Assembly (NCBI GenBank): GCA_049647125.1
Contig: JBARXC010000151.1
Location: 107,956-171,955 of the forward strand
DNA length: 64,000 bases
Direction of reading: 5' to 3'
Source of the DNA: a bacterium
Lineage (GTDB): Bacteria > Hydrothermota > Tepidihabitantia > SM23-42
Every line of letters begins with the position of its first letter. Position 1 is the stretch's first letter. The notes beneath the pieces were generated by a model. The model did not search any database. It worked only from the letters and a program-made list of their open reading frames with translations, and was not told the origin of the DNA. Below, one piece after another: positions 13,554-15,080 of the stretch. The position numbers and the translations under genes are program-made.

Positions 13554-15080
13554 TCAATGCGCTCCCCCACTCACGCATGCCGAGTGACAAGCTGAATGAC
13601 ACGCCGAGTGGCAAGCCGAATGACACGCTGAATGACACGCCGAGTGGCAGGCATCATGACAAGCAGTATGGACATAGCAAGCACTGTGACACGCGTCTGA
13701 TGTCACAAAGGCTGAATAACTCTTTATCGGCTCTGCGTAGGCAACAAAGGCAGATTCGGTTTCATTGAAATACCCTTGCCGAGAAAATCCTCGACCTGAC
13801 AGGTAATTATAGTACTCAGCTTTACTGTATTCAGAATCAATCTTTGGCGAATGGGCTCCTATTTTCTCTTCGTAGTATAGCTTTGTTGCCTTGATATCAC
13901 AATCCCATGATTTGACTGATATTTTTTCAACGATCTGACTTATTAAAGATTTCAGAGTTGCTTGATTTAAGGTGCCGTCTGATTTCACGGCTTGAACAAA
14001 GGCGGTTTCATAATAGCGCAGACCAGCTTGTCTTTTGAGTACCCTGATTTTCAAAGGCTGGCGAGATGTAATCTTTATCAAACCGTTATCCTGCAATTTG
14101 AAAGCCAGTATCGTTAAAACCTTATTTACCGGATAATCCAAAAGTAATGCGGCTTCAATCAAATCAAGTTTGGCAACCTTACCAGACTTGCGAAAAGTGG
14201 CGACCTCGATCTTTGGTGGCACCCAATCAGCCCTGAGCCACTTGAGACTGGCGACATCACTGTATGCACCCTTTATCTGCTTTGCCTTTTTATTATTGAA
14301 GAGGATATACGGCACGACAGAAAGCACCATCCAGAGAAGCTCAAACGGGAAGGTAAACCTCTTCTTCCTCTCAGGTGTGATCTCAACGTTCTCAGGTTTG
14401 ATTTCAATAGTCCCGAATTTCTCAGTAGTGAAATATTCAGCCGGTACATACTGCTGGATCATCATACGCTCTTCTGTATCTAAATTCTCCTTGTATATGC
14501 GAACTGTGAAGAAGTGGTCACCCTGGTATTTCTGACCAAAGTACGATAACAAGTAGTTTTCATTCATAAACTTCTCAGTTTTAAAACCGTAATCATCTGG
14601 ATTGACTTCCTTGCCGGGCACGGTTACTGGATAGTAGACACAGACTGTATAGTGTTCAAGTGGCTCATCCCATTGGGCTGGTGCCCAATGGAACACGACC
14701 AGGTCACCAAATTCGCTTGTCGTCTTGGCAAGGTTGCCGCTTTGACCGAGGTCCCCACCAAAATGGAAAATATACGTGATCGCACCGGGACCAAATCTCT
14801 TGCCGCTTCCAAGGATGATATCGTATTTATTACCGAGGTCTTTTATCTCAAGTGGATACTTGTTACCGTACTCATCGACTGCATAGGCATCATCAAAATC
14901 AAAATACGGGTCTACTGTCTTTTCCTGAAAATAAAACCCGCTCATCGTACCAGAGAGCACGTTCCAACGTACCTTGTAAACGAAATCTGCCCGACCATCC
15001 TGCCATAATGAAACGTCGACCTCAACCCAGCGCAGATCAGTAGATAATGAGATAAGGGATAATATTAAAATACTAATCAT
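13554..15080 (-). CDS. DUF2207-like single-pass membrane protein with C-terminal (Cys-His-Ser-Ala)n repeat tail
   Basis: Signal/anchor [13 protein letters not shown]. N-domain [23 protein letters not shown]..., resembling DUF2207. One TM ([16 protein letters not shown]). Cytoplasmic region with [33 protein letters not shown]. Tail is [14 protein letters not shown](CHSA)x6-CVSGGAH. Confidence 0.7.
   Translation of the reverse strand: [508 protein letters not shown]
13575..13700 (-). repeat. in-frame 12-nt-period coding repeat encoding CHSA units
   Basis: Decoded codon by codon: 10 Cys at 4-residue spacing (one 6-residue unit). Synonymous codons vary between units. A 23-nt exact copy (13591-13613 = 13627-13649) shows a 36-nt higher-order duplication. 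Confidence 0.9.

Follow-up and report, generated by a model that had tools for sequence, protein, structure and literature searches.

This analysis concerns a cysteine- and histidine-rich tail at the C-terminus of a membrane protein encoded in a 64,000-nucleotide stretch of DNA from a bacterium of the Hydrothermota (contig JBARXC010000151.1), referred to below as the window. The gene in question, termed the target gene, lies on the minus strand at 13554-15080 and is followed directly by a gene encoding a radical SAM/SPASM enzyme. The tail is quite likely the substrate of this adjacent enzyme. The system as a whole is, on balance, best understood as a protein-embedded modification resembling that of peptides made on ribosomes and modified after translation (RiPPs), in which the tail of a membrane protein is modified by the neighbouring enzyme and the product is kept on the cytoplasmic face of the membrane.

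The features of the two genes are listed below. The abbreviations are AF2 (AlphaFold2), pLDDT (its per-residue confidence score, the predicted local distance difference test) and RRE (RiPP recognition element).

13554..15080, minus strand: target gene, 508 amino acids, type I membrane protein bearing the tail
13557..13691, minus strand: Cys/His-rich C-terminal tail, residues 464-508, ending (CHSA)x6-CVSGGAH; proposed core peptide, that is, the segment to be modified (codon table; identical peptide in 28 loci; weak TIGR04117 match of 14.9 bits)
13692..13850, minus strand: aromatic-rich linker and conserved pre-repeat motif (YSAFVTSDA), residues 411-463; candidate RRE docking site (alignment; low pLDDT)
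13851..14183, minus strand: cytoplasmic alpha/beta domain, residues ~300-410, with the motifs W.PPK..V..FRK.GKVA and WDCD..AT..YY (AF2 pLDDT ~90; invariant or near-invariant alignment columns)
14253..14357, minus strand: single transmembrane helix, residues ~242-276 (hydropathy segment 242-261; AF2 helix 246-276)
14436..15080, minus strand: signal peptide (residues 1-15) and extracytoplasmic beta-sandwich (residues 16-215; 13-213 in the AF2 model), DUF2207-/ribophorin I-like (AF2 pLDDT >90; Foldseek)
12190..13548, minus strand: radical SAM/SPASM maturase, 452 amino acids from ATG 13548 (Pfam Radical_SAM and SPASM)
13174..13461, minus strand: N-terminal RRE (PqqD-like) domain of the maturase, residues ~30-125 (family profile; Pfam PqqD)
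13093..13116, minus strand: CX3CX2C radical SAM cluster motif CNLKCDFC (sequence; motif positions in orthologs)
12214..12447, minus strand: SPASM domain with auxiliary Fe-S cluster cysteines, C..GxxxxC…C…CxxCx5Cx3C…C (PF13186, TIGR04085)
13562..13568, minus strand: Shine-Dalgarno-like GGGGGAG inside the Gly-Gly-Ala codons of the tail, 10 nucleotides (nt) before the maturase ATG 13548

Composition and conservation of the tail

The repeat tract is coding on the minus strand and forms the last 46 codons of the open reading frame (ORF) at 13554-15080. An earlier note on this DNA had described a CHSA repeat at 13575-13700, an interval that corresponds exactly to residues 461-502 of the 508-residue protein. 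As that note had it, ten cysteines recur every fourth residue with a single 6-residue unit, which reads C-Y-V-H-T-A; they occupy positions 464, 468, 474, 478, 482, 486, 490, 494, 498 and 502, at a spacing of 4, 6 and then seven times 4. Its statement that each Cys is followed by His needs correction, being true for only eight of the ten, with Tyr after C468 and Val after C502. Asp occurs in one tail unit only in the window protein. Residues 464-508 contain 10 Cys and 10 His, compared with 2 Cys and 5 His in residues 1-463 (12 Cys and 15 His in the whole protein), and this pattern is far beyond chance. The tail at 13557-13691 is also the sole Cxxx run in any frame of the window. Tandem Repeats Finder places an array at 13575-13664 (period 36, 2.5 copies, 85% matches) with period-12/24/36 structure. 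The codon table bears out the described shuffling of synonymous codons, with Cys written as TGT or TGC, His as CAC or CAT, Ser as AGT, TCG or TCA, and Ala as GCG, GCT, GCC or GCA.

The family to which the protein belongs comprises 974 clusters at 50% identity. It is carried by at least 545 species-level genomes (one genome per species scanned; at least 545 confirmed loci), all from uncultured lineages. These include WOR-3, Stahlbacteria, Acidobacteriota/Aminicenantes, Planctomycetota, Armatimonadota, Elusimicrobia, Omnitrophota, Verrucomicrobia and others, at least 14 named bacterial lineages in all, together with Asgard archaea. Among the matches listed, the closest relative of the target protein comes from a Candidatus Stahlbacteria/WOR-3 metagenome-assembled genome (92% identity). 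The best 80 of the at least 545 confirmed loci (L005-L084) were combined with four added loci (L001-L004), giving the sample of 84 loci used below.

An identical 46-residue tail is encoded in 28 loci, all of them within L005-L084 and none within L001-L004. They come from WOR-3/Stahlbacteria, Acidobacteriota, Fischerbacteria, Sumerlaeota, Armatimonadota and Planctomycetota. At the DNA level the tails of these 28 loci are 72-92% identical to that of the window, and every difference is synonymous, so that nonsynonymous divergence (dN) is 0 while synonymous divergence is near-saturated. Aligned family proteins share only 24-63% overall identity, compared with the unchanged tail peptide in these loci. 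Similarly, in an alignment of 38 sequences, mean identity to the window protein is 0.77 in the tail and 0.33-0.35 in the two folded domains, which makes the tail the most conserved part. Among 95 relatives of about 490-670 residues obtained in a protein search, almost every complete one has the C-terminus (ACH[SDNGTH])n-ACVSGGxx. Within the tail, Cys and His do not vary, x is small or polar, and the terminal ACVSGG anchor is conserved in the family alignment. Subtypes of the tail are CYVHT, CYEGAF, CFxGCF and a VHD-interrupted form. Given the identical 46-residue tail, the synonymous-only DNA change and the 77% identity of the tail against 33-35% for the domains, very strong purifying selection acts on the sequence of the tail and on array length alike. 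The earlier suggestion that selection acts on the peptide, and that the pattern does not reflect recent slippage, is thereby strongly upheld.

Variation in repeat number

The same note had proposed that the array can expand, on the strength of a 23-nt exact copy (13591-13613 = 13627-13649) taken as a three-unit block duplication. The copy itself is real, exact and not extendable. In simulations with random synonymous codons, the longest internal repeat has a median of 12-14 nt and the probability of reaching 23 nt or more is 0.02-0.06; the copy in the window is, on its own, only mildly unusual. The unit number of the window is shared by every WOR-3/Stahlbacteria relative at 56-92% protein identity. 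In the closest of them, L005, the longest internal exact repeat is 20 nt at period 24, compared with 23 nt at period 36 in the window, and the array is of equal length. A recent block duplication was therefore rejected as evidence for expansion, as the closest relatives keep the unit number with different internal exact repeats and 23 nt is only mildly unusual in the simulation. The difference between L005 and the window at equal length, together with an observed median longest repeat of 20 nt over 29 loci against the expected 12-14 nt, points instead to homogenisation within the array (gene conversion) under fixed length.

Over the family as a whole, the part of the proposal that concerns a variable unit number stands. 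Between 2 and 11 Cys make up the final 4-spaced run; their number is bimodally distributed, and the reading frame is kept in every case. No frame-disrupting variation in repeat length was found among homologs, so the variation is not of the kind expected from noncoding slippage. Unit number can differ between relatives that are 61-71% identical overall, some of them with near-identical pre-repeat segments, as in P0008 and P0026 with 7 and 3 CH units, respectively; assembly collapse on short contigs could account for such differences.

The adjacent radical SAM/SPASM enzyme

The enzyme encoded directly after the target gene matches PF04055 (Radical_SAM) with 95.7 bits (cutoff 29.5), PF13186 (SPASM) with 27 bits (cutoff 21.5) and TIGR04085 with 35.2 bits (cutoff 27). 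In front of this core lies an N-terminal extension of ~100 residues with the conserved pattern W[IV]D.[FY]...I.P....R..D.LLI..PN.A..LN. The family profile of the extension matches the lasso-peptide RRE protein TfuB1 (6jx3_B, E=0.006) and PqqD, and Pfam PqqD (PF05402) matches 14 of 20 maturase orthologs, the best at 1.6e-5. As judged from these profile matches, the enzyme has the RRE-radical SAM-SPASM arrangement that is the classic architecture of a peptide maturase. Its nearest relatives of known structure in the PDB, by sequence, are SkfB (the best, 1e-18), PqqE (6c8v, 6e-16), SuiB, CteB and anSME. In WOR-3 relatives, conservation is poor over the first 25-30 residues of the maturase, which contain repeated motifs ('KFQ', 'IPKYLK', 'FQISN'), and the 5' end of the gene in the window contains a 21-nt imperfect direct repeat (13512-13553) that encodes KFQ..KFQ.

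The association of the two genes is close to constant. Searches by tblastn with the window proteins place the radical SAM gene immediately after the target in 79 of 84 loci, and a third gene after the radical SAM gene in 75 of the 84. Among the five loci without a radical SAM match, L008 ends at a contig edge and L011 is masked by runs of N, while the other three (L049, L054 and L057) are real. A run of N also lies inside the radical SAM gene of a further locus, L087. In an Asgard locus (Promethearchaeota, L086 3068-7773) the order is radical SAM/SPASM gene, a 456-residue gene, target gene, and the target tail there consists of CHS[AN] units followed by ...ACVSCACACACAGGGW. The 456-residue middle gene shows no BLAST similarity to the third gene of the window. 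The linkage between the radical SAM gene and the target thus survives a change of gene order and of domain of life. No description of this Cys-His tail and radical SAM system was found in full-text searches of the literature.

The maturase start codon, ATG 13548, sits 5 nt past the stop codon of the target. In 63 of 84 loci the target gene has a GGAG-type motif within its final 24 nt, and many loci have a TGATG stop/start overlap. Together with the GGGGGAG sequence in the Gly-Gly-Ala codons of the window, this motif suggests that the conserved VSGGA end of the tail doubles as the ribosome-binding site of the maturase.

The repeat also disturbs gene annotation. It was noted earlier to create spurious ORFs in two other frames, and these are indeed present at 13571-13684(-) and 13577-13768(+), along with an extension of the downstream radical SAM ORF to GTG-13638 that runs into the repeat and is likewise spurious. 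Read in other frames (window 13549-13638(-); L006, L026, L027, L030, L064 and others), the repeat yields peptides of the LPQRLPLGL- or MPFSLSLG-type. In many records the longest radical SAM ORF, counted from the first ATG past the upstream stop, runs back into the repeat, and some database target proteins, such as P0346 and P0429, are frameshifted through it. Over-extended radical SAM starts and frameshifted targets are a recurrent annotation artefact, which is of practical relevance for database proteins of this family.

The membrane protein that carries the tail

Homologs of the target protein are 489-844 residues long. The AF2 model of the window protein has an overall pLDDT of 79.8. In Foldseek searches, the ectodomain and transmembrane segment match ribophorin I/Ost1 of the oligosaccharyltransferase (8pn9_E, E=1.6e-8) and M1 aminopeptidase chains over ~225-245 columns, the latter matches being read as the N-terminal domain of those chains; beyond this generic ribophorin-I/aminopeptidase-N-domain beta-sandwich, the fold search of the target returned nothing. 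Pfam and NCBIfam scans gave no match above threshold for the protein. Its score against PF09972 (DUF2207) is 14.5 bits compared with a gathering threshold of 24.4, and homologs score 16.8-26.8, with P0015 alone passing (26.8). The modelled fold, a beta-sandwich with a transmembrane helix after it, is the one that DUF2207 would lead one to expect. Literature on DUF2207 yielded only unrelated papers, one of which, on 5-thiohistidine, names DUF2207 merely as an unlinked neighbour.

The signal peptide has only one transmembrane helix after it, which predicts a tail that faces the cytoplasm and would therefore be within reach of the radical SAM enzyme. The aromatic-rich linker in front of the tail is poorly conserved, and the segment just before the repeat follows the pattern [YF]xx[FIL]xxSxxC[HYF]x[AG][CA][YF] in the family alignment. 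Carrier paralogues that lack the tail occur in low-GC organisms (P0397, P0399 and P0407; L085).

Proposed mechanism and alternative explanations

In the proposed mechanism, the tail, written as (A-C-H-x)n-ACVSGGAH, would serve as the substrate or core peptide of the adjacent, translationally coupled radical SAM/SPASM enzyme. The N-terminal RRE of the maturase would bind the conserved stretch that immediately precedes the repeat, and the radical SAM/SPASM core would then modify the tail units one after another. The chemistry would be centred on Cys, for example the formation of S-C thioether cross-links of the sactionine or ranthionine type to a neighbouring residue. Thioether formation is the leading guess, and a tentative one, drawn by analogy from the closest enzymes of known function and from Cys-repeat substrates such as those of the PapB and SCIFF systems. 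What results would be a stiff array lined with His and sulfur and tethered at the inner face of the membrane. Since the Cys-His pair is invariant, it may be speculated that the modified product binds metal or is redox active. The third membrane protein and, in many phyla, a 129-residue protein would complete the cassette.

Several points weigh against this mechanism. The chemistry is not readable from sequence, and an unmodified Cys/His array could bind metals alone. Three loci of one clade, L049, L054 and L057, have the full 10-Cys tail and no adjacent radical SAM gene. The cassette contains neither a protease nor an exporter, which is atypical for RiPPs, and the tail itself is modelled by AF2 with pLDDT below 50. 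The N-terminal sequence of the window maturase gives no PqqD match by itself, so that its RRE is called from the family profile at modest E-values. Against NCBIfam, the maturase has no equivalog model at or near cutoff. Its top scores there are to tetrapyrrole enzymes, AhbD (1.7e-41) and NirJ2 (4.1e-39), with the peptide modifiers PqqE, WgkB and StsB only slightly lower.

The three loci without the enzyme encode instead a 605-residue protein downstream of the target, whose N-terminus resembles, by eye, homocysteine S-methyltransferase (MetH-like). Two of these records are labelled Aminicenantes and one 'Clostridia'.

The first alternative, a less likely one, is that the tail binds metal without being modified, and that the radical SAM enzyme acts elsewhere. 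The earlier note had taken this view of a soft-metal ligand array, leaving the neighbouring enzyme out of account. A Cys-His array of this kind, probably helical with Cys on one face, could bind Zn, Cu(I), Ni or Fe, comparable to the Cys-lined helices of copper-storage proteins or the His/Cys-rich tails of metallochaperones. It is consistent with the invariant Cys and His and the small or polar x, with a low-confidence AF2 helix at 481-499, and with an ArsR-type HTH_5 regulator upstream of the cassette in one locus. However, the near-universal presence of a coupled, RRE-bearing radical SAM/SPASM neighbour is difficult to account for unless that enzyme acts on the tail. In addition, the exact length and the residues that are not ligands (Ala, the YVHT insert and the VSGG end) are kept across phyla, which is stricter than the usual loose metal tails, and the neighbourhoods examined contain no conserved metal transporter or chaperone. 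Because the coupled maturase adjoins the tail in 79 of 84 loci, enzymatic modification is more likely than an unmodified soft-metal array. The tail, modified or not, may bind metal. Metal binding by an unmodified tail would hardly explain everything.

A more far-reaching form of enzymatic modification is that the tail becomes a new protein-tethered cofactor. In this case, every A-C-H-x unit would be turned processively into a cross-linked Cys-His structure, and on it a chain would be arranged, made up of hemes (with CX3CH recurring every 8 residues), of Fe-S-like centres or of metal ions. The tail would then act as a metal or electron conduit, or as a sensor coupled through the transmembrane helix to the ectodomain, and the family would form an unrecognised class of 'protein-embedded RiPP'. 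Such a combination appears rather improbable.

It is still more doubtful that the tail is a scaffold from which a small cofactor is released. According to this idea, each ACHx unit would be converted and later proteolytically liberated as a Cys/His-derived cofactor, following the logic of pyrroloquinoline quinone (PQQ) and mycofactocin with many copies per precursor. The repeated, identical units and the invariant Cys-His dipeptide fit such a scheme, and PqqE (118 bits) and MftC are among the best full-length NCBIfam matches of the maturase. Family and fold scans, however, revealed no recognisable peptidase or follow-up tailoring enzyme in the cassette. The scheme also leaves unexplained a membrane-anchored carrier of 500 residues with a conserved ectodomain, and members with only two CH units and the terminal Cys exist.

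There is only a slight chance that the tail carries a covalent heme array, a dense stack in which overlapping C-X3-C-H motifs hold the hemes and a spare His every 8 residues acts as distal ligand. CX3CH is known as a variant form of CXXCH, the motif of cytochrome c, and cytochrome c maturation is extracytoplasmic. The sequence CHSACH is literally CX3CH, the linker before the tail is rich in aromatic residues, and the highest NCBIfam scores of the maturase are those to the tetrapyrrole enzymes. The motif is present, but the tail is predicted to be cytoplasmic and does not lie in an exported segment; this predicted topology keeps the probability low. Furthermore, AhbD and NirJ are far below cutoff (143 bits compared with 500 for AhbD) and barely above the peptide modifiers, the RRE domain points to a peptide substrate, and the cassette has no ccm or ccs genes. 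One heme per 8 residues would be sterically unprecedented, and the resemblance of motifs is the sole basis for the idea.

Finally, the idea that the ORF ends in a nonfunctional repeat prone to slippage, or in an assembly artefact, which the tandem 12/24/36-nt structure, the differing unit number among distant members and the tendency of short-read assemblies to collapse repeats might suggest, is effectively refuted by the presence of the tail in hundreds of independent assemblies, always in frame, by a dN of 0 at near-saturated synonymous divergence and by the conserved terminal ACVSGG.

Other genes of the cassette and its surroundings

Two further genes belong to the cassette, the second of them in many phyla, and are listed here with a possible promoter.

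11280..12203, minus strand: third cassette gene, 307 amino acids from ATG 12203; four transmembrane helices and a C-terminal beta-sheet domain, fold without match (AF2 pLDDT 78.5)
15125..15514, minus strand: 129-residue soluble protein, encoded directly upstream of the target and accessory to the cassette in many phyla (32 of 84 loci)
15534..15561, minus strand: best sigma-70-like site, TTGACT-16-TAAAAT, upstream of the 129-residue gene; possible operon promoter (consensus match only)

Called mechanically, the ORF of the third gene would begin at TTG 12302, whereas its homologs (300-307 residues, all 'hypothetical') favour ATG 12203, which gives a 14-nt overlap with the stop of the radical SAM gene. 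The protein has no Pfam or NCBIfam match above threshold and no PDB sequence-profile match, and a fold search returned nothing significant (best YbjN, E=0.13). A 593-residue multi-transmembrane protein with C-terminal TPR repeats (window 9495-11276(-)) starts 3 nt past the third gene. As it follows the third gene in close relatives only (L005, L006 and L058, and partially in L012), it is probably a lineage-specific passenger of the operon.

The 129-residue gene lies 44 nt upstream of the target. Its product, found in several phyla, is more conserved than the target protein (52-97% identity), with 218 homologs and 60 invariant columns in 16 sequences, and has no Pfam, NCBIfam or PDB-profile match. 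The gene order of the window, including this gene, is shared by one WOR-3-like contig (L088). In that contig, and not in the window, an ArsR/SmtB-type HTH_5 regulator (L088 5628-5924) lies directly upstream of the 129-residue gene; regulators of the ArsR/SmtB type are typically metal-sensing. Genes outside the cassette are not conserved among the neighbourhoods compared.

The window is chromosomal, with 41.7% GC, and carries genes for DXS, PEPCK, PPDK, GroEL, SprA and cargo proteins with sorting tails of the type IX secretion system (T9SS). SprA and several large proteins that end in a T9SS sorting domain, among them a C25 gingipain-like peptidase and an FG-GAP protein, are encoded at 15841-17703, 19052-24454, 33848-37012 and 50505-54275, in keeping with a genome of the FCB group (WOR-3/Stahlbacteria) that bears a T9SS.

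Comparison with known systems

The pairing of a radical SAM/SPASM enzyme with a small peptide rich in Cys is a familiar one. Among curated families, the tail has a match, and a weak one, to TIGR04117 alone, the 'Cys-Xaa-Xaa-Xaa repeat radical SAM target protein', to which the window tail scores 14.9 bits (E=0.021) and the best homolog, P0049, 18.7 bits; the cutoff of 50 is not reached. Several homologs also have precomputed weak matches to PF27846 (Cxxx-repeat radical SAM target). As in the system described by Haft under TIGR04117/PF27846, which is likewise defined by bioinformatics alone, the C-terminal Cys residues recur at every fourth position next to a radical SAM/SPASM enzyme. In contrast to TIGR04117, a 98-position model of a ~100-residue peptide, the carrier here is a type I membrane protein of 500-670 residues (508 in the window), the unit is strictly A-C-H-x with an invariant His, and the accessory genes have no family match. 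TIGR04115 and TIGR04116 are the partner maturase and accessory models of Haft's CXXX-repeat system. This dedicated maturase family (TIGR04115) is not among the 25 best of 88 full-length NCBIfam matches of the enzyme, nor among 15 matches to its SPASM part, and the ACGX-repeat maturase model TIGR04340 is not reached either (79.8 bits compared with a cutoff of 400).

The RRE-radical SAM-SPASM architecture and the Cys-rich substrate are shared with the thioether synthases of sactipeptides and ranthipeptides (SkfB, the SCIFF maturase CteB, PapB of freyrasin, and QhpD), and full-length matches to CteB and PapB were obtained. PapB acts on tandem CX3D repeats, and QhpD modifies a protein subunit that is retained, not a secreted antibiotic. 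Unlike for those synthases, cutoffs are not attained (PapB 81.5 compared with 340 bits; SCIFF maturase 13.8 compared with 425; StsB far below). The cassette also differs from sactipeptide and ranthipeptide systems in having no leader/core peptide with a protease or exporter, and an acceptor such as Asp is not present in every unit. With PqqE/PqqD and MftC/MftB the system has in common a SPASM radical SAM enzyme that uses a PqqD-type RRE for peptide recognition; here, however, the RRE is fused to the enzyme, the substrate would be a repeat on a membrane protein, and genes for downstream cofactor processing are absent.

The carrier resembles DUF2207 (PF09972) proteins in its signal peptide, beta-rich ectodomain, transmembrane segment and low-complexity C-terminal tail. 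It departs from them in that the usual tail is replaced by the radical-SAM-linked Cys-His repeat, and archaeal members have hybrid ...CACACACAGGGW endings. As a Cys-rich ribosomal product that may act as a metal ligand, the tail can also be likened in general character, with no sequence relationship seen, to bufferins and other Cys-modified RiPP metallophores and to copper-storage proteins (Csp). Bufferins are Cys-rich, converted into metal ligands by multinuclear non-heme iron oxidase (MNIO) enzymes and exported, while Csp proteins are unmodified four-helix bundles that store Cu(I) along helices lined with CxxxC.

Judged by its genes and motifs, the system would appear to work like the known kind of radical SAM/SPASM enzyme with a Cys-repeat target, yet it lies outside the described families. 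Its distinctive features are the membrane-protein carrier, the strict A-C-H-x unit, the exact conservation across phyla and two accessory proteins without a family match. The part of the 'peptide' falls in this case to the tail of a complete type I membrane protein, residue-for-residue constant across phyla in which the carriers are ~40% identical. Solving the cassette would probably reveal a new post-translational modification or cofactor, together with a new role for DUF2207-like membrane proteins.

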